A stretch of 64,000 nucleotides of DNA from an uncultured Christensenellaceae bacterium (lineage in GTDB: Bacteria > Bacillota > Clostridia > Christensenellales > CAG-314). A program made the translations under genes and the position numbers. The stretch covers positions 61,081-125,080 of the forward strand of contig CAJUIV010000001.1 of NCBI GenBank assembly GCA_910586905.1. The letters are read 5' to 3'. The stretch's first letter is position 1, and each line of letters starts with the position of its first letter. Shown here in pieces: positions 31,612 to 51,361 of the stretch. Below the pieces are notes generated by a model. The model was not told the origin of the DNA. It saw nothing but the letters and a program-made list of their open reading frames with translations, and searched no databases.

Positions 31612-31640
31612 ATTATAACCGCCCCATATCTAGTTGTCAA
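31612..31640 (-). promoter_or_regulatory. consensus sigma-A promoter for the MalK-like gene
   Basis: Minus strand: TTGACA (31640-31635), 17 nt, TATAAT (31617-31612). Confidence 0.6.
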
Positions 31641-32119: not shown

Positions 32120-33763
32120 TTATCTTATAACCGCCAACGAAAATTGAGGCATGTTCAAAACGGAACCTTTAAACTTTACGTCTCTTCCGTTGTCGGCGGA
32201 TAAAAAGCCCGCAAGCGTACCCTGCAAATTGTTATCCGCTATAATTTGAGCGACGTTAACGGTTTTGCTTTCGGTATCGTTTAGATTGTAAACAAGCAAA
32301 ACGCTTTTGCCGTTATACGTACGGACTATAATCGCTACGTCCGTATCCTCATACGCAACGAAAGAGGAAGTTCCTCTCGCAATTTCGGGATTTTGACGGC
32401 GCAGCAGCATTATGCGGCGATAAAAATTGTACAGACTGCTTTGGTCGTCGACCTGTTCGGCAACTCCGCCCAAATAGTCGTCGTATTCGCCGTACAAAGT
32501 AGACATTCCGTAAGACTGGTATGCAAAGCCGTTTTCGTGAGTCGTTTCCGAATCGGCGCCCCAATCCATTGCGGTACGGTACGTATGGTCAAGGTAATCG
32601 TCGCTCGTGCTTATGCGCAAACCGCTGCGCAGTCCGATTTCGTTACCGTAGTAGTTAAATACGTTACCAGTTTGAGTATAAAGCAACGCGATACCCATTT
32701 TGTGTCTTTCGTACATCGAAACGTCAAATTTATTCGTGCGCCTGCTAACGTATCCCAACGCAGCCGAATTTGCAACGCGTAAAGTATCGTGATTGCTTGC
32801 GAACAAAGCGTCTATTCCCTTTGCCGTGCCGTTCTCCTTCGCCTCTACTACGTTTTTAAGTTCTCCGGACTTATCCGTTACGCTCGCGCCCACTATTGCG
32901 GGAATTTGATTTCCGCCGTCGGCTGTGCTGAGAGCAAAGTTAAAGAAGCTTTGTACCGAATCTTCCGCATAATGAGAATAAATCGTTTCCGCGTTATCCC
33001 ATACTTCTCCGACCATATAAACGTCGGGATTGTATTTTTTTGCCGTTGACATAAGCCACTGCATAAACGAAATGTTTTTCGAGGCGTTGCCGTAAAAATG
33101 CATAGCGGCGTCAAGACGGAAACCGTCGACTTGGCAATCTTTCAGCCAAAACTTACAAATCGCGTCAATCTCGCCGCGGACGTCTTCGTTATCCAAATTG
33201 AGTTTGGGCATATGCGAATATCCGCCGAACGTTTCGTAAGAATCACCTTGATTGTCCGTAAACATATAGTAACTGCGGTATTTGGACTCTTTACCCTCGC
33301 GGTAAGCTTGCTGTGCCGCTTCGAACCAAGGGTGATGATTAGACGTATGGTTGAAAACCATGTCGAGCATTACGGAAATGCCTTTACCGTGAGCGGCCGC
33401 TACGAGCGATTTAAAATCGTCCAACGTGCCGAACTCCTCGTCCACGCTCAAATAGTCGGTAACGTCGTACTTATGAGACGTGGGAGACGGATGAATAGGC
33501 GAAAGCCAAATACCGTTAAAACCCAAATCGGCAATATAATCCAATTTTTGTTCAACGCCTTTTAAGTCGCCTACTCCGTCGCCGTTACCGTCGGCAAAAC
33601 CGTAAACGAAAATTTGATAGTAATCTTTATAGTACGGATTGCCGTCGTCGTATTTTTGATTGGACTCCCAATCCTTTATATCGTTCGGAGTACACGCCGT
33701 AAAAAACGTCGCAACGAACGATAAACACAAAATTATCGATATAATATAAGTAAACTTTTTCAT
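32120..33763 (-). CDS. GH13 alpha-amylase-family lipoprotein (alpha-amylase / neopullulanase-like)
   Basis: GH13 regions DMVFNHTS, GFRLDAAMH, MVGEVW and FASNHD. Lipoprotein signal MKKFTYIISIILCLSFVATFFTAC starts at the ATG at 33763, which overlaps the upstream stop codon. Confidence 0.85.
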   Translation of the reverse strand: MKKFTYIISIILCLSFVATFFTACTPNDIKDWESNQKYDDGNPYYKDYYQIFVYGFADGNGDGVGDLKGVEQKLDYIADLGFNGIWLSPIHPSPTSHKYDVTDYLSVDEEFGTLDDFKSLVAAAHGKGISVMLDMVFNHTSNHHPWFEAAQQAYREGKESKYRSYYMFTDNQGDSYETFGGYSHMPKLNLDNEDVRGEIDAICKFWLKDCQVDGFRLDAAMHFYGNASKNISFMQWLMSTAKKYNPDVYMVGEVWDNAETIYSHYAEDSVQSFFNFALSTADGGNQIPAIVGASVTDKSGELKNVVEAKENGTAKGIDALFASNHDTLRVANSAALGYVSRRTNKFDVSMYERHKMGIALLYTQTGNVFNYYGNEIGLRSGLRISTSDDYLDHTYRTAMDWGADSETTHENGFAYQSYGMSTLYGEYDDYLGGVAEQVDDQSSLYNFYRRIMLLRRQNPEIARGTSSFVAYEDTDVAIIVRTYNGKSVLLVYNLNDTESKTVNVAQIIADNNLQGTLAGFLSADNGRDVKFKGSVLNMPQFSLAVIR

Positions 33764-34698
33764 CAGCCTTTTACTGAACCTCCCGTAACTCCCGCAACGT
33801 AATACTTTTGCAGGAACATAAACAAAATCGTTATAGGAATCGCAACCATCGTCGCGCCCACGCAAAACAATATCCAGTGCGAATTGTAGTTTTCGGTTTC
33901 GAGCATCGCTTGAAGTCCCAAAGAAACCGTGCCGTAATCGAAATTACCCGAGCAGATAAGTTTTACGAAAATGAAGTCCATCCAAGGGGCCATAAACGCG
34001 GTAAGCGCCGTGTATACGATAATCGGTTTACTTAGAGGCAGGGTGATTTTAAAGAATATCTGAGCCTGATTCGCGCCGTCCAATTTTGCCGCTTCGTCAA
34101 GTCCTTTGGGTATTGTATCGAAAAATCCCTTACATACGTAATATCCCATACCCGCACCCGCGCTGTACACGAAAATCAACGCTATTATTTTGAGCGGACC
34201 TTCGTTAAGCCCGAACGCGCGCAAGATGTTGTAAATTGCTATCATGCCCAAAAATCCGGGGAACATACCCAGTATCAATATAAGCTTCATATACGGCTGG
34301 CGCATTCTGAAACGCATTCTCGAAAACGCGTAGCTTGTCGCAAGCGTCATAAGCGTGGTAAGTACGCACGAACAGCACGCTATAAGCAGGGTATTGCCGA
34401 ACCAACGCGGAAAGTTTATCCAGTCGAATTTGTTATCGGCGTAATTCGCGGGGTTGCCGCCGAACATTTTTGCCCAAGCGTCTAAAGAAAACTCCGTCGG
34501 AAAAATTTGGTCGGGGAAAGGAATCGTTATGTCGTTTCCGCGGAACGAGTGAATAAATACGTATCCGAAAGGCAATATCCATATCACAGCCATTACGGTC
34601 AGTATAATATGTATAACCGTAAGCGAAGTTATCTTCACCGCTTTCATACTGCGGTATCTTTTTTGTTTTTTAATACCTAAAGCCGACGCGTTTCTCAT
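33763..34698 (-). CDS. carbohydrate ABC transporter permease (MalG-like)
   Basis: Six TM helices and the EAA-type loop LDEAAKLDGANQAQIFFKITLP. ATGA overlap with the upstream permease gene. GGAGGA Shine-Dalgarno. Confidence 0.85.
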   Translation of the reverse strand: MRNASALGIKKQKRYRSMKAVKITSLTVIHIILTVMAVIWILPFGYVFIHSFRGNDITIPFPDQIFPTEFSLDAWAKMFGGNPANYADNKFDWINFPRWFGNTLLIACCSCVLTTLMTLATSYAFSRMRFRMRQPYMKLILILGMFPGFLGMIAIYNILRAFGLNEGPLKIIALIFVYSAGAGMGYYVCKGFFDTIPKGLDEAAKLDGANQAQIFFKITLPLSKPIIVYTALTAFMAPWMDFIFVKLICSGNFDYGTVSLGLQAMLETENYNSHWILFCVGATMVAIPITILFMFLQKYYVAGVTGGSVKG

Positions 34699-36170
34699 TG
34701 GAAATCCTCCTCGTTCTTAACCGCGGACGTATTACGGTAAACGGCGAGCGAAAATACCGCGCATACTATAAACACCAAAATACCGATAACGGAACCGGTT
34801 TTATAGTCGCCGTAACTGCCTCCGACCGTTATGTTGTACAGCCATGTAATAAGCAAGTCGGTTTTCCCCGCGGGGGCAACCAAATCGGAAGACGTAGGTC
34901 CTCCTCCGGTAAGCAAGAATATGACGTTAAAGTTGTTTATATTTCCTATAAACTGCGTTAAAAGATACGGTCCGGTAACGAACAGCATATACGGAAGAGT
35001 AATTTTGAAAAACGTTTTTACCGGTCCCGCGCCGTCGATACGCGCAGATTCGTAAAGTTCTTCGGGGATATTCATCAATATACCGCTCGTTATAAGCATC
35101 GAATACGGGATACCTATCCACATATTTATAAGAACCACCATAAAACGCGCCAAATTCGTTTCTTCCAGCCAGCGTATGTTGTTGTCTATCCAACCCCAAG
35201 ACGTGAGCAGCTGATTGACAAGTCCGTTTTCGGTACTGAAAAACTTGCTGACGACAAGCAGACTTACGAATTGAGGCACGGCTATCGTAATTACGAAAAA
35301 GCCGCGGTAAATCTTTTTAAAACGCACGCCTTTTTTGTTGATAAGTATTGCCAAAACCATACCGCCTATGTACGTGGTAACGGTTGAAAGCACCGCCCAC
35401 AACAGCGTCCAGCCCAAAAGCTTGAAAAACGTCGAACCCAGCGCGTTGTCGCCCTGCATATCGAACAGATGCTTGAAGTTATCAAGTCCGACCCAGGTAA
35501 ACAAATTGTTAGGCGTTAAGTGTTCGTTATCGTAGTTGGTAAAAGCAATTAAAATCATGAATACCAACGGAATAACCGTGCCTACCACTATACCCGCCGT
35601 AGGCAGCGCCAGCAAAGTCGCATGGAAATTTTTGTCTAGCATATTGCGCAAATCTTTTTTCGTATTTGCGATAGGCATATTAAATTCGGAACGGGTTTGA
35701 TTTTCGTACGCGTTTTTAAGCTGTTTGACGTACATAAAAACGAATACCAAAATAATCATTATCGTTGCGCCGCCGAATAGCAATATGGCCAGAGAATCGT
35801 CGCCCGGCGTTCTTTCGTTGGTGGGCAAACCCGTAATCGGGTCTATTACCGGTTCGGACAAATTCGTTCCGAGCGTTCCGAATTTACTCAGATAGTAACT
35901 GCCGGTAAACACCATAAACAATACGAAACCTATTTCGAGCAACAAATAAAGCGCGCCTCTTAACGGCTGCCCGTACGCAAAGCATCCGAAACCCATAATC
36001 AAAAGAGAAAGTCGGGTTTTCCAATTACCGTAACGTACTGTTTGCCACAAACCGACGAAAAAATTGCCGATTTTTTTGAAAAACGAAACGAACGAATCTC
36101 CGATTTGCGCAAGCCACCGTACGAATCGGTTGGACCGTTTTACCGTTTTAGTTCCAATATTTTCAGTCAT
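34695..36170 (-). CDS. carbohydrate ABC transporter permease (MalF-like, long N-terminal region)
   Basis: EAA loop YESARIDGAGPVKTFFKITLP. AGGAGAA lies 7 nt upstream of the ATG at 36170. Confidence 0.85.
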   Translation of the reverse strand: MTENIGTKTVKRSNRFVRWLAQIGDSFVSFFKKIGNFFVGLWQTVRYGNWKTRLSLLIMGFGCFAYGQPLRGALYLLLEIGFVLFMVFTGSYYLSKFGTLGTNLSEPVIDPITGLPTNERTPGDDSLAILLFGGATIMIILVFVFMYVKQLKNAYENQTRSEFNMPIANTKKDLRNMLDKNFHATLLALPTAGIVVGTVIPLVFMILIAFTNYDNEHLTPNNLFTWVGLDNFKHLFDMQGDNALGSTFFKLLGWTLLWAVLSTVTTYIGGMVLAILINKKGVRFKKIYRGFFVITIAVPQFVSLLVVSKFFSTENGLVNQLLTSWGWIDNNIRWLEETNLARFMVVLINMWIGIPYSMLITSGILMNIPEELYESARIDGAGPVKTFFKITLPYMLFVTGPYLLTQFIGNINNFNVIFLLTGGGPTSSDLVAPAGKTDLLITWLYNITVGGSYGDYKTGSVIGILVFIVCAVFSLAVYRNTSAVKNEEDFQ

Positions 36171-36370
36171 AAAGCTTTCTCCTGACAAAAATATACGTTA
36201 AAACCGTTTATGAAAAAACGCCTTTAACCAGAAATCTAAATCATATTTCAATAAGAAATTTTACGAAACTTACGTTTCCGTAATAATTTCCGAATATTCC
36301 GTTTAAAAAACGTTCTTAAAATCGAAGTTACGAAGCGAAATCCGTAAAACGGTTATTTTAAGAACAAATC

Positions 36371-36396
36371 GGAGAAGAGGTTGCCCCCTCCTCCGA
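36371..36396 (-). terminator. strong stem-loop after the binding-protein gene (intra-operon attenuator or mRNA stabiliser)
   Basis: Minus strand: CGGAGGAGGGGG-caa-CCUCUUCUCCG followed by AUUUGUUCUU. Lies between the binding-protein gene and the first permease gene. Confidence 0.5.
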
Positions 36397-36422
36397 TGCC
36401 TTGAATTATTAAAAACCGGTAT

Positions 36423-37736
36423 TTATTTTGCGGTTTCCAGTTCCATAGCTTTAACCATAGCGGTTAACAATTTGCGTAATTCCGCGTCTTGATATACGCC
36501 GTCTTTAAAATAAACGTCTTTCGTTCTGTCGGCAAGAGCGCCGGCGGTTTTTACTGCGTTGACGGGAGTTTTTATCGCTTCCCAATATCCTTTGGGAAGA
36601 TTAAGCTGCGGTATGCTGTAAGCAGACTGCGCTGCAAGTACTTTTGCAATGTCGCTTGTGGAAGCGCCTGCGTCGTTCGCTGCGTTTATATTGCTGGGAC
36701 CGGCGGAAAGTTTTATCATTTTGTCTTTCTGTACGGCTTCGCTCGTCATAAAGTTAGCTAAGTCGCGCGCCGCTACAATGTTTTGAGACAAAGAATTTAC
36801 GCCGATAAGTTTGTTGCTTAAGAAAGGTATCATTTGCGCTTGCTCTTGTTCGTAAACGAACTTAGGCAAAGGCGCGATTTTGATGTTGGGATTGTTTGCA
36901 AGAACCTCCGTATAAACGAACGGTCCGCCTACGCCTACGGCTATTTTTTGTGAAGTTTTGTTAAACTCTTTGGGCAAATCGTTTGCGGGAACAACTTTCA
37001 AAAGCGGATTCATAGACATTTTATGAGCGGTTTTAAGCGCTTTAAGACCTATGTCATCCGTACCGAAATTGGTTTCCGTTTTAGTTGCATTTCCGCCGAA
37101 AGCATAGAAAAACGCCGATTGATACCAAGGATCGCCCAAATCCAGCTGAACGCGATAGTTGGAAGAATGTTCCGTATTGTAAGCGGCTACCTTTTCAAAG
37201 ATATTATCCCATGTGGTAAGTTCGCTTTCGCTGATGATTGCGGGGTCGTAAAACAGAAAATACGTATTGTCAGCCTGCATCGGGAAAGCGTAAAGCAATC
37301 CGTCGGGTCCCGTTGCCGCGGCCACCGAACCTTCGGTATTGCGCGACGCAATATCTTTCGCCAAAACGGCGTTTTCGTTTTTAGGGTCGCCGAGCGCCGA
37401 CAATAATTTTGCGTCGAGCAACGTGTCCATTTGGTCGTCTACGAAACAGAAAACGTCCGCTCCGTCGGCTCCCAAATTTTTCATTTGCGTAGCGGCTGTT
37501 TTTTCCGCTTCTACGCCCATAATTACCGTGTAGGTTTTTCCGCCGGCAGCTTCGGATTTATTATACTCTTCCGCCCATTTTTTAGCCCATTCGGCATAGA
37601 ACGTCTGCGCGCCGGACGGAGCCCACATAACTATCTCTACGTCTTTGTCATTATCCGTACACGCTATCAGCGAAACAAGCGACAACGTCATTACGGCAAC
37701 TAACAGCAACGACAGTAATATTTTAGATTTTTTCAT
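36423..37736 (-). CDS. extracellular solute-binding lipoprotein (maltodextrin/oligosaccharide-binding, MalE-like)
   Basis: Lipobox signal MKKSKILLSLLLVAVMTLSLVSLIAC. Family-1 SBP size. Genomic context with MalF/MalG-like permeases and a GH13 enzyme. Confidence 0.8.
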   Translation of the reverse strand: MKKSKILLSLLLVAVMTLSLVSLIACTDNDKDVEIVMWAPSGAQTFYAEWAKKWAEEYNKSEAAGGKTYTVIMGVEAEKTAATQMKNLGADGADVFCFVDDQMDTLLDAKLLSALGDPKNENAVLAKDIASRNTEGSVAAATGPDGLLYAFPMQADNTYFLFYDPAIISESELTTWDNIFEKVAAYNTEHSSNYRVQLDLGDPWYQSAFFYAFGGNATKTETNFGTDDIGLKALKTAHKMSMNPLLKVVPANDLPKEFNKTSQKIAVGVGGPFVYTEVLANNPNIKIAPLPKFVYEQEQAQMIPFLSNKLIGVNSLSQNIVAARDLANFMTSEAVQKDKMIKLSAGPSNINAANDAGASTSDIAKVLAAQSAYSIPQLNLPKGYWEAIKTPVNAVKTAGALADRTKDVYFKDGVYQDAELRKLLTAMVKAMELETAK

Positions 37737-37749
37737 ATATTTCTCCGTT

Positions 37750-39537
37750 TTACTCCGCTGCAACTATGCTTAACGCTCCGGATTCGATAGTCAGCGTAAT
37801 TGTGTATGTTCCTGCCGCAGCTATTTTTGTATTGCCGCCTCCGAACCATTGAGCAACGCCCAAACTCGTTCCGTAAACCGCTTGTACGGCAAACACGCCG
37901 TCCTCTCCCAACCAAGTGTATCCTTCTTTCTCGGAAACGTCGGTTACCGTTAACGTAGCCGTAGCCGTAAGTCCGTCTTGGCTAACCGTCAATTTGGGAG
38001 TTAAGCCGTCTTTAACGGTAAAGTTAACGTTCTTGTCTTCCGCATCGACAAAAGTTCCTACGATATAGTAAGCGCAGGCTTCAAATTTTACGGAATTGTC
38101 TTTTTCATCGTAAGTTACATAATAATCGCCCGCGAGCAAGAAAATATTTCCTTTTCCGTTTTCGCCGATACCGTAGTCAAGTTTATCTACATTATTTTTT
38201 ACTTTTATTGCGGCGCATTTTGCATTGAATCCGCCTTGAGCGATTGTCCAATCGGGACCGTAATCGTCTTCGGTAATAGTAATTTTACCGGACCAAACCG
38301 TCGAATTTTCTCCTTTTGTTAATTTAACGGCCGTTTCGTAAACTTGGTCGAAATTTCCTCCGCCGATTGTACCGACGATATACATTTGATGAGTTTCCGT
38401 AAGTTCTTCGAGAGCGGTAACGTTAATCGTTATGATTCCGTTTTCGGTATCCAACTCGATTTCAGCCGTCATTTTGTATTTAGTAGTGATATTTCCGCCG
38501 TCATCGGTAAAGATATCGTCTTTAGTTACGCCTTCGGGCAATACTACCGTATCCTCAACCGTAACGCCCATAAGTTGAGCGAAACCGTAATTATCACGAT
38601 TCCAATCGCTTTCGTTTACTTTGATTTTGAAAGCGCCGGGGTTAAAAGAAACCGTCGCCTTATAAATAACTTTTGCCGCATCGGGAGTCATAATAAAATC
38701 TTTATATTGTCCGTCGGCAGCGAAAGGTCCGTTCCAAGAACTGATACTTCCTACGATGATAAATCCAAGTTCGGAAATAGGAGCTTTAGGCGCTCCGGAA
38801 GCTTCTTTTATAGTTACCGTAACTACGCAATCGTCGCTTATATCGCTGTATTCAAAACGAATATCGACTTTCATATCGCGAAGAATCGAGATATTATTCA
38901 TATCTCCGGCGCTAATCAATACTTCCGTATCGGTTCCGTCAACGTCGTCAGGCAGCGTAGCTCCCTCTGCAATTTTAACCGTAGCTTGAGAATATCCCGC
39001 TTCGATTTTAACTTGCCCTGCCCACTCGCCCGTTTTGGCGGGAACAGCCGAAACAACTTTAAAACTATCGCCCTGTTTAAGAGTTAAGTCCGTCATAGTA
39101 TAAACGTTTGTACCTTCTTGATGGGTAAGTTTTCTTGCGGCGGTTTCTACAACCGTTACAAGGTCCCAATCGGTAACGCCGTTGATAACGCCGGGTAAGC
39201 AGTAACCTACGCTTTCGCCGATTAACGTCCATTTAGCGTACAAAGTCGTATCTTTGTCGAAAGTAGTCGTAGCAAGGTCTACCTTTTTACCGTACGTTTG
39301 AGTTCCGTCCGCATTGTTGGTAAGACTGTCGTACCATCCGTCGAATACGCGGTCGTCCGCCGTAAGGTTCTTTTTGGTATATTCTACCTTGCCCTTTACA
39401 GTTTGCAGTTCGTCCATTTTAGCGTTGTTTGAATTTCTAAACGTAATGGTGTATTCTTTGTTGCAGGCAGTCAAAACAAGCACCGCCGATACTACAAGCA
39501 ATACGCTTAGCAAAACCGCTAATGTTTTTCTTTTCAT
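37750..39537 (-). CDS. large surface lipoprotein, N-terminal Listeria-Bacteroides (InlB B-type) repeat followed by beta-rich modules; possible glycan-binding protein
   Basis: Signal and lipobox MKRKTLAVLLSVLLVVSAVLVLTAC. YTITFRNSN...FDGWYDS...YAKW repeat signature. First gene of the maltodextrin cluster, 13 nt upstream of the SBP gene. GGAGGAAAAT Shine-Dalgarno. Confidence 0.5.
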   Translation of the reverse strand: MKRKTLAVLLSVLLVVSAVLVLTACNKEYTITFRNSNNAKMDELQTVKGKVEYTKKNLTADDRVFDGWYDSLTNNADGTQTYGKKVDLATTTFDKDTTLYAKWTLIGESVGYCLPGVINGVTDWDLVTVVETAARKLTHQEGTNVYTMTDLTLKQGDSFKVVSAVPAKTGEWAGQVKIEAGYSQATVKIAEGATLPDDVDGTDTEVLISAGDMNNISILRDMKVDIRFEYSDISDDCVVTVTIKEASGAPKAPISELGFIIVGSISSWNGPFAADGQYKDFIMTPDAAKVIYKATVSFNPGAFKIKVNESDWNRDNYGFAQLMGVTVEDTVVLPEGVTKDDIFTDDGGNITTKYKMTAEIELDTENGIITINVTALEELTETHQMYIVGTIGGGNFDQVYETAVKLTKGENSTVWSGKITITEDDYGPDWTIAQGGFNAKCAAIKVKNNVDKLDYGIGENGKGNIFLLAGDYYVTYDEKDNSVKFEACAYYIVGTFVDAEDKNVNFTVKDGLTPKLTVSQDGLTATATLTVTDVSEKEGYTWLGEDGVFAVQAVYGTSLGVAQWFGGGNTKIAAAGTYTITLTIESGALSIVAAE

Positions 39538-39697
39538 ATTTTCCTCCAAAATTTTTATTTTCACTTTTCGTAAGAAAAGTTAAAAACGATAAAAAACGCG
39601 GCTTTTCAATCGTTAACCCGATTTTACACCGCTTTTGCCTACCGAGTTATTTATAACCGAGTTACAAAACTTCTCATTATTCTTTTTTAGCTTATAA

Positions 39698-39727
39698 ATA
39701 ATACCCCCCCCCGTATCCTATTGTCAA
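39698..39727 (-). promoter_or_regulatory. promoter-like element with a G9 tract in the spacer
   Basis: Minus strand: TTGACA, then ATAGGATAC plus G9 (39712-39704), then TATTAT. The spacer is 18 nt. Confidence 0.5.
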
Positions 39728-39982
39728 CACATTTCGATATAAAAATATTTTTTATCGGTTTGTTCATTTTTGAGCCTTTAAAATGACCAGTTATAGCTGT
39801 TTTTAGACATTTTTTTCTAAAAGTGTGGAAAAACTTGCAAAAGTTTTTTGGTAAAAAATCAAAATAGGGGTTGAATTCATCCTATCTTTATGATAGTATA
39901 TAGTATGTGAAATTCCAGCTACAAAGATACCGAACGCGCTTCGGAAGTATAAAAAGTAAAATTTAAAGCAAGGAGATAATTT

Positions 39983-43255: not shown

Positions 43256-44023
43256 TTATTTTTCAAAAGCGGACTTCAAAAGCGAGAAGTAATCCCACAT
43301 ATCCGTCCAAGTAGCGCCGGTTTTAACGCCGTTCTTATCAACTAATTCGTTGTCGAGTTTAGCGTCGGTAGCGCTGTTATCCGTAACTTTGAAATCTTCT
43401 TTTTTAGCCGCGCCGTCAAAACCGTTTTCTACGACATAGTCGCATGTAGCTTTTACGTTGGCTTTCCAACCGAGAGCGTTAGTGGCGGGAGTTCCCCAAT
43501 AGTTGTTTTGCGTTTTGAGAAGCGCTTTAGCGTTGAGAATATCCGTCTTTTCGCCGTCTGCAAGAACAACTTTCACTTCGTTTTTAGCAACAGCTTCGAA
43601 ATACTTTTCGCAGTTAGCTTCGTCGGCAAAGAATTCGAGCATGGTTTTCGTTCCTACCATATATCCTTTGGAAACGCCTTCTACTTCCGTTCCGTCGTAT
43701 ACCATAGTTACGTCGCCGAATTTAACGGTTTTGTAAAAATGAGCCGTCGCGGGCGAGCCGTGGTTCAAATATTTACCTTCTACCGTATATCCTTCGATTG
43801 CGTTTTCCGCTTTAACGTAAGTAGGTAAACAAGCCTCGTCTAAATCCGCGGATACTAAACTGTCGCCAAGACGAACTACCGTCGCTTTGCCGACATAACC
43901 TTTTCCGTGTACAAGACCATAGGCAGTTTTCGTTTCTTCTTGTGCGCAGGATGCGAGTAAAATTACCGACAAAGCCATAACGCAAGCAAGAACTACTACC
44001 AAAAGTTTTGCATGTTTTTTCAT
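43256..44023 (-). CDS. hypothetical lipoprotein
   Basis: Signal and lipobox MKKHAKLLVVVLACVMALSVILLASC. AAAGGAGAAAA Shine-Dalgarno. No family recognised. Confidence 0.5.
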   Translation of the reverse strand: MKKHAKLLVVVLACVMALSVILLASCAQEETKTAYGLVHGKGYVGKATVVRLGDSLVSADLDEACLPTYVKAENAIEGYTVEGKYLNHGSPATAHFYKTVKFGDVTMVYDGTEVEGVSKGYMVGTKTMLEFFADEANCEKYFEAVAKNEVKVVLADGEKTDILNAKALLKTQNNYWGTPATNALGWKANVKATCDYVVENGFDGAAKKEDFKVTDNSATDAKLDNELVDKNGVKTGATWTDMWDYFSLLKSAFEK

Positions 44024-44068: not shown

Positions 44069-44098
44069 ATTTTAATCAATAATACCCCCCCCCGTCAA
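44069..44098 (-). promoter_or_regulatory. promoter-like element with a G9 tract
   Basis: Minus strand: TTGAC, then G9 (44093-44085), then TATTATTGATTAAAAT. TTGACG to TAAAAT is 18 nt. TATTAT directly abuts the G run. Confidence 0.4.
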
Positions 44099-45724: not shown

Positions 45725-46831
45725 ATGAAAATAATCGTAAACAGTTTAGACCTCAACGACGCTGTAGCAAAAGTTTCAAAAGCTTTACCAAGTAAAGACG
45801 TCGCGCCCGTACTCGAATGTATAAAAATTACGGCTGAAAACGACAGACTTACTTTATACGCTACGGATAAGGACTTGGCGATAGAAAAAACTATCGACGC
45901 AAACGTTATCGTCGGCGGAGAATTTTTGGTTCCGGGAAGAATTTTCGGAGATTATATACGCAACATATCCGATAACGGAAGCGATATTTCGCTGGAAATA
46001 ACCGACGAAAACAGGCTGGTTATAAGTTCGGCGAACAGCGAATGTAACATAGGAATACTGGACGCGGACGATTATCCCGAAGTAGAATCGATAAACGGAG
46101 CGAGTTATTTTGCCGTACAGGAACTGAATTTAAAGGAAATTATAAACAACGTTATCTTTGCGGTTGCGACGGATGACAGCAGACCTATGCTTAAAGGGGT
46201 GCATTTCGAAGCTAAGGAATATACGTTATCCGCGGTTGCGACGGACGGATACCGTTTTGCGATGAGCAAAAAAGTATTGGAAGAAAAAGTCGACGAAATT
46301 TCCGCCACTATACCTTCCAGAAGTTTATCGGAACTATCCAAACTTCTCACCGACGGCGACAACGTTTTGAAAGTGTTTATCGAAAACAACTATTTGATGG
46401 TAGCTATGGAAAACACCAAGCTGTACACAAGGTTGCTCGGCGGACAATACATAAAGTACGACAATATCGTGCCTAAGGACTTTTTATCTACACTTCTTGT
46501 TGACAAGGAAACGTTTGAAAAAGCTCTCAACACCGCTTCTATTATGTCGCGCAGCGAAAAGAACAATTTGGTAGTATTCAATATCGAAGAATATAATATG
46601 AATATATCTTCGACGAGCCAATACGGAACGGCGAAAGAGAACGTTACCATTTCGCTTACCGGAAAGGACGTAAGATGCGCGTACAATTCCCGTTATATTA
46701 ACGATTGTTTAAAAGTTATAAACGCAGAAACAATACGTATGGAATTCGCTCAGCACAACAGCTGCGTTATAACTATCTACGAGAGCGACGAAGTACTTTA
46801 CTTCATATTGCCTGTCAAACAAATAGTATAA
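45725..46831 (+). CDS. dnaN: DNA polymerase III subunit beta
   Basis: 368-aa sliding clamp: MKIIVNSLDLNDAVAKVSKALPSK...PVLECIKI..., ...DSRPMLKGVHFE..., ATDGYRFA. AAGGAGAA Shine-Dalgarno. Confidence 0.95.
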   Translation: MKIIVNSLDLNDAVAKVSKALPSKDVAPVLECIKITAENDRLTLYATDKDLAIEKTIDANVIVGGEFLVPGRIFGDYIRNISDNGSDISLEITDENRLVISSANSECNIGILDADDYPEVESINGASYFAVQELNLKEIINNVIFAVATDDSRPMLKGVHFEAKEYTLSAVATDGYRFAMSKKVLEEKVDEISATIPSRSLSELSKLLTDGDNVLKVFIENNYLMVAMENTKLYTRLLGGQYIKYDNIVPKDFLSTLLVDKETFEKALNTASIMSRSEKNNLVVFNIEEYNMNISSTSQYGTAKENVTISLTGKDVRCAYNSRYINDCLKVINAETIRMEFAQHNSCVITIYESDEVLYFILPVKQIV

Positions 46832-50203: not shown

Positions 50204-50379
50204 GTATTGCGCCGCTTAAGCGGTTTAACGCCGTTTCTTGCGCAAAATATTCGTAATAAAATCGGTTTTCTTCTTAAAAACGATTTTAAAGATACGAAAA
50301 AAAGTCTTAAAAGATATTTCGTAAAATGAAAATATTTACGTTTTTATATTTTTTTTCACAAAAAAAACGTCATCGAATA

Positions 50380-50410
50380 TTGACAATGGGGGGGGGTATA
50401 GTGGTATACT
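50380..50410 (+). promoter_or_regulatory. promoter-like element with a G9 tract in the spacer
   Basis: TTGACA (50380-50385), AT, G9 (50388-50396), TATAGTGG, TATACT (50405-50410). The spacer to TATACT is 19 nt. Confidence 0.45.
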
Positions 50411-50440: not shown

Positions 50441-51361
50441 ATGCGTAAAAACTTGAAAGAGTATTTTGAGCAGAACGGCTGCAAAATCGAGGGCAACTCC
50501 GCTTGCGGAGTTATAAACGGATACAGGGTAAACTACTCTACCGCTCCTATGGAAACAAACACCGTGCTGTTTTTTTCTTATTACGCGGCTGAGAACGACA
50601 GACAAAACATCGTAGACGCCTTAAAAATATTGGAAGACAAATTTACAAAGTATTCGTTTAACGTATACGGAGTAACGTTTTTGCTTAACGATTGGACGGG
50701 CGCCAAACTTGCGGAAAGAATTATGCGTACGATAGATACCGTTTGTAACGTGCTAACTAAAAACAACGCCAAGGGCGCGGAGTATTGTCCTATATGCGGC
50801 AAACAGCTGAACGACAGCGAAGCGCAGCTCCGAAAAATCGACGGGTTCTACGTCGCTATCGACGAAGAGTGCGTAAATTCGTTAAACGAAAGAATCGAAC
50901 AATCCAATCAAGAATTCGAATCCGCTCCAAACAATTATTTAAAAGGCTTCGGCGGAGCGCTTATAGGCGGACTTGCGGGAGTCGCCGTAGCGGTTATTTT
51001 AAATTTGATTGGCTTTATTTCCGCAATATCGTCTTTCGTGGCGTTTTTCGTTGGAATTTTGCTTTACCGCAAATTCGGCGGAAAGCCTAACAAAATGATG
51101 TTGGTTATAGTTACGTCGACGACTTTCGTTTGTATGGTGCTGTCCATAATCGGCATATACGTTTTCGTAGCCGGACAAGCCGCAGTTGAACAGGGCGCAA
51201 ATATGAGCGCGTTTAAAGCGTTTTCCGTATGTATGCAGGACGAGGAATTTGCAAGATATTTTTACGCCGATTTGGCAATGACTATTTTATTTTCGGTTTT
51301 AGGATGCGTATTCGAAATCGTTAAAACGGCGCGTAATATAAAGCGCGCGACAAAAATATAG
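50441..51361 (+). CDS. hypothetical membrane protein (soluble N-terminal domain with a CPICG zinc-ribbon-like knuckle, 3-4 C-terminal TM helices)
   Basis: 306-aa ORF with GGGAGA Shine-Dalgarno. Hydrophobic segments GGALIGGLAGVAVAVILNLIGFI, FVAFFVGILLY and MMLVIVTSTTFVCMVLSIIGIYVFV. Confidence 0.45.
   Translation: MRKNLKEYFEQNGCKIEGNSACGVINGYRVNYSTAPMETNTVLFFSYYAAENDRQNIVDALKILEDKFTKYSFNVYGVTFLLNDWTGAKLAERIMRTIDTVCNVLTKNNAKGAEYCPICGKQLNDSEAQLRKIDGFYVAIDEECVNSLNERIEQSNQEFESAPNNYLKGFGGALIGGLAGVAVAVILNLIGFISAISSFVAFFVGILLYRKFGGKPNKMMLVIVTSTTFVCMVLSIIGIYVFVAGQAAVEQGANMSAFKAFSVCMQDEEFARYFYADLAMTILFSVLGCVFEIVKTARNIKRATKI

Follow-up and report, generated by a model that had tools for sequence, protein, structure and literature searches.

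To our knowledge, repeat-driven phase variation at multiple loci is known almost only from host-adapted pathogens such as Neisseria, Haemophilus, Campylobacter, Helicobacter, Treponema and Mycoplasma. In Neisseria meningitidis, the -35 and -10 boxes of porA are separated by a poly-G run, and according to two summaries the length of this run determines that of the spacer and thereby the level of transcription, a graded 'volume control' (PMC7864442; PMC3639595). In the tp0126 promoter of Treponema pallidum, poly-G occupies the same place and expression is highest when the spacer has 17 nt, and the run of tprL is G9 in most molecules (PMC7864442). The poly-G/C tracts of Campylobacter jejuni have a modal length of nine that is attributed to a slippage bias, G8 mostly gaining and G11 mostly losing a nucleotide (PMC3401435). 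Clostridioides difficile uses invertible elements (PMC11868660), and full-text literature searches for Christensenellales and other Clostridia returned no description of promoters that vary in phase through repeats.

Here we analyse a window, i.e. the whole stretch of 64,000 nt of DNA under study, that contains three G9 runs (sites A, B and C). At the level of sequence, they share with promoters of the porA/tp0126 type a spacer homopolymer of about 7 nt or more, length variation with constant flanks and envelope genes downstream. A preliminary description of the window had proposed the run at site A as a slipped-strand switch of a maltodextrin operon.

Results

Three G9 runs lie in predicted promoter spacers

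The window has a GC content of 42.8% and comprises three G/C runs that exceed 5 nt and no more, each of 9 nt (Table 1). This census of run lengths over the whole window agrees with the earlier count of three runs of nine, with five as the next longest. Run numbers for lengths 1-5 were 17741, 3765, 551, 91 and 10, a decrease of about 6-fold per extra base, and runs of 6-8 nt were absent across the window. Order-1 and order-3 Markov models predict 0.02-0.04 runs of at least 9 nt by chance, in line with the earlier expectation that runs of nine should be rare, and extrapolation of the run-length spectrum yields 0.004. An order-5 model was left aside because it is contaminated and learns the G9 tracts themselves. 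Long G/C runs in coding DNA had been named beforehand as a finding that would speak against a switch; within the window no coding G/C run above 5 nt was found. The search of the window revealed no other noteworthy simple repeats and no mismatch-repair genes to examine, and the Rfam search detected one tRNA only and nothing in promoters or leaders.

All three runs are intergenic, carry G on the sense strand of the downstream gene, are preceded by TTGAC and abutted by TAT, as the preliminary description had stated, and the three tract-bearing promoters lie within 11 kb. It had taken this as one and the same promoter context, which holds for the position of the run, since G9 is always within the -35/-10 spacer (offsets of 9, 0 and 2 nt at A, B and C). 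However, the abutting TAT is the -10 box only at site A, where TTGAC stands 9 nt from the run and the TAT box is sensibly spaced; as a general -10 it was rejected at sites B and C, where spacers would be 9-11 nt. The promoter of site A was re-read exactly as described (full minus-strand sequence gtgTTGACAataggatacGGGGGGGGGTATTATttataag). Its G9 ends 166 nt upstream of the lipoprotein ATG at 39537, close to the 160 nt given before. Site B reads cacTTGAC-G9-TATTATtgatTAAAATatc on the minus strand, with 0 nt between TTGAC and the run. At site C (TTGACA-at-G9-tatagTGgTATACT on the plus strand) the run starts 2 nt after the -35 box, the spacer has 19 nt, and TGg before TATACT forms an extended -10. 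TGn extended -10 boxes lessen the dependence on -35 spacing; they are present at site C and in the contig records L023, L025, L030 and L033. About 12 nt upstream of the site C -35 box, in the UP-element zone, an A8 run occurs as A7, A8 or A9 among assemblies. Since this run is also length-variable, unstable homopolymers number two in the promoter of site C.

Table 1 Features of the window referred to in the text (positions count from the first letter of the window)
Feature	Position	Strand	Description
G9 runs at sites A, B and C	39704-39712; 44085-44093; 50388-50396
Promoter of MalK-like ABC ATPase gene (predicted)	31612-31640	minus	TTGACAactagatatGGGGCGGtTATAAT, 17-nt spacer
Rest of site A operon	32120..37763	minus	Pfam and gene calls in other assemblies
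GH13 alpha-amylase-family enzyme	32120-33865	minus	Pfam
MalG-like permease	33763-34698	minus	BPD_transp_1 (Pfam)
MalF-like permease	34695-36188	minus	BPD_transp_1 (Pfam)
Solute-binding protein	36423-37763	minus	SBP_bac (Pfam)
Site A lipoprotein	37750..39537	minus	595 aa, signal peptide ending in LTAC lipobox
Hairpin and U-run	39591..39632	minus	within the operon leader (~150 nt) at site A; MFE fold, z = -2.5
Site A promoter (predicted)	39698..39727	minus	TTGACA + 18-nt spacer + TATTAT
Site A -35 box	39727-39722	minus	TTGACA
Site A spacer		minus	18 nt, ATAGGATAC + GGGGGGGGG (G9, 39712-39704, 3' half)
Site A -10 box	39703-39698	minus	TATTAT
Divergent promoter (predicted)	39871-39899	plus	TTGAAT-17-TAGTAT; invariant box TAGGATRAATTCAACC on minus strand
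Site B lipoprotein	43256..44023	minus	255 aa, lipobox LASC
Site B promoter (predicted)	44069..44098	minus	TTGACG-18-TAAAAT
Site B -35 box	44098-44093	minus	TTGACG, final G is first G of run 44085-44093
Site B second -10-like box	44084-44079	minus	TATTAT, abuts run
Site B -10 box	44074-44069	minus	TAAAAT
dnaN	45725-46831
dnaA	48776-50158
A8 run near site C	50360-50367	plus
Site C promoter (predicted)	50380..50410	plus	TTGACA 50380-50385, AT, G9 50388-50396, TATAGTGG, TATACT 50405-50410
Site C membrane protein	50441..51361	plus	306 aa, CPICG zinc-ribbon motif, C-terminal transmembrane segments

Across 6 species, no part of the intergenic region at site A is better conserved than the promoter block, whereas the region as a whole has a mean identity of 53%. 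Downstream of it, the leader of the operon contains a CGCGTTTTTTATCG block that is kept across five species, and a predicted hairpin with a U-run whose stem sequences differ between them. This hairpin is a candidate attenuator or terminator and thus possibly a second, conventional layer of control. The invariant box TAGGATRAATTCAACC upstream of site A was considered as a site for a shared regulator and rejected: it occurs once in the window and represents the -35 box and spacer of a divergent promoter, which likely serves the Phd-antitoxin/short-chain dehydrogenase genes. In the predicted promoter of the MalK-like ABC ATPase gene, the 3' half of the spacer is G-rich and resembles site A; it could be a decayed, locked tract.

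Tract length varies within the species

Exact-protein look-ups of contigs provided 30 same-species promoter observations from ~20 independent samples. The tract of site A was G9 in 11 and G8 in 2 of 13 assemblies. Site B covers a wider range, with one G7, two G8, six G9 and one G10 (n=10 assemblies), and site C was G9 in six cases and G10 in one (n=7 assemblies). The tract flanks were identical in all 30 observations, 7 of which had a non-modal length. Relative to the mode, assemblies show longer tracts (G10) as well as shorter ones (G7, G8), and such two-way changes are compatible with reversibility. One MAG (GCA_949060735.1) carries G8 at site A, G10 at site B and G9 at site C, therefore the loci vary independently.

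In the assemblies with variant tracts, none of the 29-59 A/T runs compared in each deviated. Over 3,086 nt, contig L012 departs from the window at the tract and nowhere else, while a tract indel is accompanied by 3 substitutions in L004 and by 1 in L005. The tract is the fastest-changing position between near-clonal genomes, and the undeviating A/T runs together with these near-clonal contigs rule out generally error-prone assemblies.

For comparison, A/T runs were followed in the same assemblies. Lengths were non-modal in 7/140 observations of A/T runs of at least 7 nt versus 7/30 for G9 (p=0.004), whereas for A/T runs of 8-9 nt with mismatch-tolerant flanks the ratio was 5/38 versus 7/30 (p=0.34). 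Exact 12-nt flanks had given p=0.07 for the latter comparison, as they missed a variable A-run beside a SNP, so that the mismatch-tolerant value stands and the claim that G9 exceeds A/T runs of comparable length in polymorphism was dropped. The G9 polymorphism is real, yet of the kind that any long homopolymer shows: since A/T runs of 8-9 nt are nearly as polymorphic, variation in itself is long-homopolymer behaviour. Of the spacer phase variation that the preliminary description had put forward, variable lengths between constant flanks and pure tracts across species are thus retained, but not an excess of variation over A/T runs of 8-9 nt.

The tract promoters head genes for surface and envelope proteins

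The products at all three sites belong to the surface or envelope, namely two lipoproteins with lipoboxes and one membrane protein (Table 1). The lipoprotein of site A has an N-terminal InlB-type B-repeat followed by beta domains of the SusE/SusF/X25-like starch-binding type, and its homologues show Flg_new (InlB B-repeat) and weak CBM_1st_SusF matches. In an AlphaFold model with a mean pLDDT of 64, which is confident only for residues ~25-380, the best PDB matches were SusF (4fe9, E 6e-8), X25-2 of Ruminococcus bromii Sca5 (7rpy) and SusE with maltoheptaose (4fch). Because of these structural matches, the protein is most likely a surface starch- or maltodextrin-binding protein. Pfam domains support the gene cluster as it had been described, i.e. 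lipoprotein, SBP_bac, two BPD_transp_1 permeases and GH13; the operon coordinates in Table 1 are ORF limits, and the true starts are somewhat shorter.

The site A lipoprotein gene is a hot spot of strain-level diversity (L035, L039-L041). Alleles of 595/596 aa and of 783/790 aa are found behind the same promoter between flanks that are 97.7-99.9% identical, the N-terminal third being conserved and the C-terminal part swapped.

No Pfam domain was detected in the lipoprotein of site B. Some of its homologues (P0107, P0115) are longer and carry an FMN-binding domain (PF04205), and in L058 (11131-13143) the site B orthologue adjoins a gene for an ApbE flavin transferase; these features hint at an extracellular flavoprotein context. 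In L021, L028 and L030 the identity of the site C protein is no higher than 44-58%, against 80-91% for the neighbouring DnaA, and it evolves much faster than the genome average.

Replication origin and affiliation of the source organism

The cumulative GC skew turns at ~44-48 kb. From the position of dnaN and dnaA and this skew minimum, the replication origin lies between sites B and C. The dnaN...dnaA order is unusually split by rubrerythrin and nitroreductase genes. The window also contains a GerA/GerB/GerC germination operon, so that the source organism probably forms spores.

Homologues of the site B protein at 75% identity are named Candidatus Fimimonas, which corresponds to GTDB genus CAG-1435 (order Christensenellales, family CAG-314) with genomes of ~1.4 Mb (PMC8035907). 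Related MAGs carry the labels Clostridia, Eubacteriales or Christensenellaceae. Under NCBI taxid 2840648, Candidatus Fimimonas is filed under Myxococcaceae, while GTDB assigns it to Christensenellales, CAG-314, and related Clostridia MAGs of 42-43% GC (the records L021 and L028) are titled 'Corallococcus sp.'. The Myxococcaceae placement looks like a database misplacement.

Pure tracts are conserved in related species

Orthologues were gathered via exact-protein look-ups of contigs. A scan of species genomes with the site A lipoprotein found no relative, and a metagenome scan with the lipoprotein alignment, of which the signal-peptide patterns were uninformative, yielded nothing that could be confirmed. 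At site A, four species besides that of the window have pure G9, with a lipoprotein that is 43-70% identical; their contigs (L044, L048-50 and L052) show TTGACA-N9-G9-TAT(T/C)AT. In one species the run is interrupted (GGGGGGTGG, promoter TTGACAatagggtacGGGGGGTGGTATCAT), but the spacer still measures 18 nt and the operon is intact, which looks like a locked, working state. At site B, the L052 species with 49% GC has TTGAC-G9-tataaaatagTACAAT with unchanged 18-nt geometry and G9 in 6/6 assemblies. For site C, G8-G12 follows TTGAC(A) in 8 of the 18 readable promoters of other species, and L021 and L063 match the 19-nt geometry of the window exactly. Taken together with G7-G10 within the species, tract length varies among related genomes, and the invariance that had been named in advance as an argument against a switch was not seen. 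In L028, an extra G10 promoter heads two small lipoprotein genes.

Other orthologues have no tract and carry at the same place TTGACA-17-TATAAT (L024, L026, L027, L051, L060), TTGACC-17-TATAAT (L058) or TTGACT-18-TATAAT (L022). Thus orthologues have a pure run or none, with one exception, and degenerate G-rich versions do not occur among them. Spacers are usually 18 nt (A, B) or 19 nt (C), and 20-22 nt in some species; those with a tract are longer than those without (mean 18.5 versus 17.1 nt, p=0.003, not corrected for relatedness). Across promoters the run begins 0-9 nt past the -35 box (0, 2, 3, 4 or 9) and ends 0-11 nt before the -10 box, while the tract geometry is constant within orthologous lineages, i.e. 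A, B and the window/L021/L063 group of C. G9 is the modal length at every site and in most species. L045 (1356-1364, G9) and L047 (71-80, G10), which belong to the same species, have an intergenic run with short repeated motifs nearby. No TTGAC or -10 boxes accompany this run, the one long G-run of the lineage outside a recognisable promoter.

Discussion

A slippage-prone spacer element as the probable function of the G9 runs

We propose that the G9 runs are slippage-prone spacer homopolymers which modulate housekeeping-sigma promoters of envelope genes, a reading that we regard as rather probable on the basis of sequence comparison. Each run, located inside the -35/-10 spacer of such a promoter, would gain or lose a G during replication, and this would alter both distance and rotation between the TTGAC(A/G) and -10 boxes. 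Daughter lineages would then differ in promoter strength in a heritable but reversible manner. We infer that the TTGAC and -10 boxes constitute a working promoter because the block is conserved and tract-less orthologues carry canonical promoters at this place. The activity of sigma-70/sigmaA promoters depends on spacer length, and by analogy a change in tract length should alter transcription here as well. At site A, the spacer of 18 nt that results from G9 is probably active, and the locked 18-nt variant with its intact operon also argues for activity at this length. A stronger promoter is to be expected with G8 (17 nt), and a weaker one with G10 or longer runs.

The preliminary description had suggested that starch uptake would switch stochastically. 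On/off switching finds no support in the lengths recorded at site A, where only G9 (11/13) and G8 (2/13) occur. Since both corresponding spacers (18 and 17 nt) should be active, the starch operon is more likely modulated in a graded manner than turned on and off.

The common spacer state differs from the textbook optimum of 17 nt, which counts against phase variation. One possibility is that the common state of 18-19 nt represents a mid-level setting, one step from the optimum. G.C tracts lean toward A-form geometry, and such tracts may possibly shift the optimal spacer length. In addition, the G9 mode and the 6/6 G9 tracts at site B of the L052 species could mean that the run is kept for a fixed property.

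The last point leads to an alternative that we consider unlikely, albeit the most serious one, in which the G-run serves as a fixed element of the promoter, retained because of some physical or regulatory property, and the length variation between strains is an unavoidable and mostly harmful by-product. A stiff G.C segment with a tendency toward A-form could act in this way by moving the optimum to 18-19 nt or conferring supercoiling sensitivity; alternatively, the element could be a site for a putative regulator. Such an element would suit the modal G9 at three sites and in most species, the systematic excess of tract-bearing spacers over 17 nt, a polymorphism not above that of A/T runs of 8-9 nt, and the interrupted GGGGGGTGG variant, which retains length and not purity. 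However, the mode of nine is also produced by slippage bias in C. jejuni (PMC3401435), and with G9 in most tprL molecules it is therefore expected of such tracts. The sense-strand orientation of G in every case, which would likewise fit a fixed element, is confounded with the leading strand, given an origin between sites B and C; as all three runs are also leading-strand, the orientation was set aside as uninformative evidence for a link to transcription. Moreover, the run starts 0, 2, 3, 4 or 9 nt after the -35 box and spans G8-G12 at site C orthologues, which is hard to reconcile with one fixed geometry, and when tested across promoters neither position nor length proved constant. Orthologous promoters without any G-rich spacer exist, and the pure-or-absent pattern with its one exception is as expected if purity is selected.

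It is far less probable that the run is transcribed and acts at the RNA level, as G9 in the 5' leader of an upstream promoter or through reiterative transcription at the start site. Reiterative transcription at a G-run start site is known from Bacillus subtilis pyrG. The second -10-like box abutting the run at sites B and C and the long, structured leader of site A would be in line with such a mode of action, but in 15/15 promoters examined the run follows a -35-like box and precedes the -10, and the -10 box 6-8 nt upstream that a pyrG-type start inside the run needs is lacking. Furthermore, upstream of site A there is just one more conserved block that resembles a promoter, and it faces in the opposite direction, toward Phd; the Rfam search gave no match in the region. 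Sequencing of homopolymers is prone to error, and spurious poly-G arises from two-colour Illumina chemistry, which raises the question of sequencing or assembly artefacts; alternatively, the runs might be neutral, functionless accidents. Their recurrence mid-contig at unchanged positions (30 observations; ~20 independent samples and assemblers) and their conservation in other species, leave these explanations in effect refuted. In the case of an accident, three runs, all in promoter spacers, also stand against the small fraction of one expected.

Beyond slippage-modulated spacers at single promoters, we tentatively suggest that the tracts belong to a small, ancient set of contingency promoters in commensal, spore-forming Christensenellales, in which pure G8-G12 runs have been kept across genus-to-family divergence because switchability itself was selected. 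This wider claim may hold, and we put less trust in it than in slippage as such. The envelope operons of the set would include a SusE/F-like starch-capture lipoprotein with an ABC importer, and the unusual geometry of G.C tracts would account for a resting spacer of 18-19 nt. Selection for switchability perhaps comes from phage or IgA that target the fast-evolving surface proteins. If a contingency set exists, multi-locus repeat phase variation would extend to an uncultured commensal and to carbohydrate acquisition.

A small-genome, uncultured lineage of gut Clostridia would thus possess this device, and one of the tract promoters heads genes for starch capture and maltodextrin import instead of a classical virulence factor. 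If the modulation of promoters by slippage is confirmed, single commensal strains have a built-in heterogeneity in nutrient uptake and surface make-up, and tract length in metagenomes becomes readable as a marker of expression state. The invariant flanks suit amplicon or read-pileup assays, so that a concrete and cheap set of tests is at hand.

Comparison with known systems

Like porA, site A combines poly-G in a sigma-70-type spacer with a surface-protein gene downstream. However, porA belongs to a Gram-negative pathogen and has a 17-nt optimum, whereas 18-19 nt is usual in the promoters described here, which are known from sequence alone, and the genes under their putative control include a nutrient-uptake operon. 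Treponema pallidum has several poly-G promoters with runs of 7-12 at envelope genes (tp0126 and tprE, G, J and L), comparable to the three sites of the window. In this spirochaete pathogen the tpr runs are situated just upstream of the TSS and not strictly in the spacer, and length variation within isolates as well as effects on reporters were measured, in contrast to the comparison between assemblies presented here. The phasome of C. jejuni is similar in its G/C homopolymers at multiple loci, its modal length of nine and its surface-structure genes, but its tracts are mostly coding and act by frameshift, whereas all those found here are promoter tracts. The phase-variable SusC/SusD-type nutrient-uptake loci of Bacteroides (cited in PMC11868660) share the gut commensal life style and the stochastic expression of surface glycan- or starch-capture systems; there, promoters are inverted by invertases and not changed by repeat slippage, and the phylum and type of envelope are different. 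While the architecture itself is known, the features that appear to be new here are the lineage, the presence of several loci, the conservation across species and the nutrient-uptake operon.
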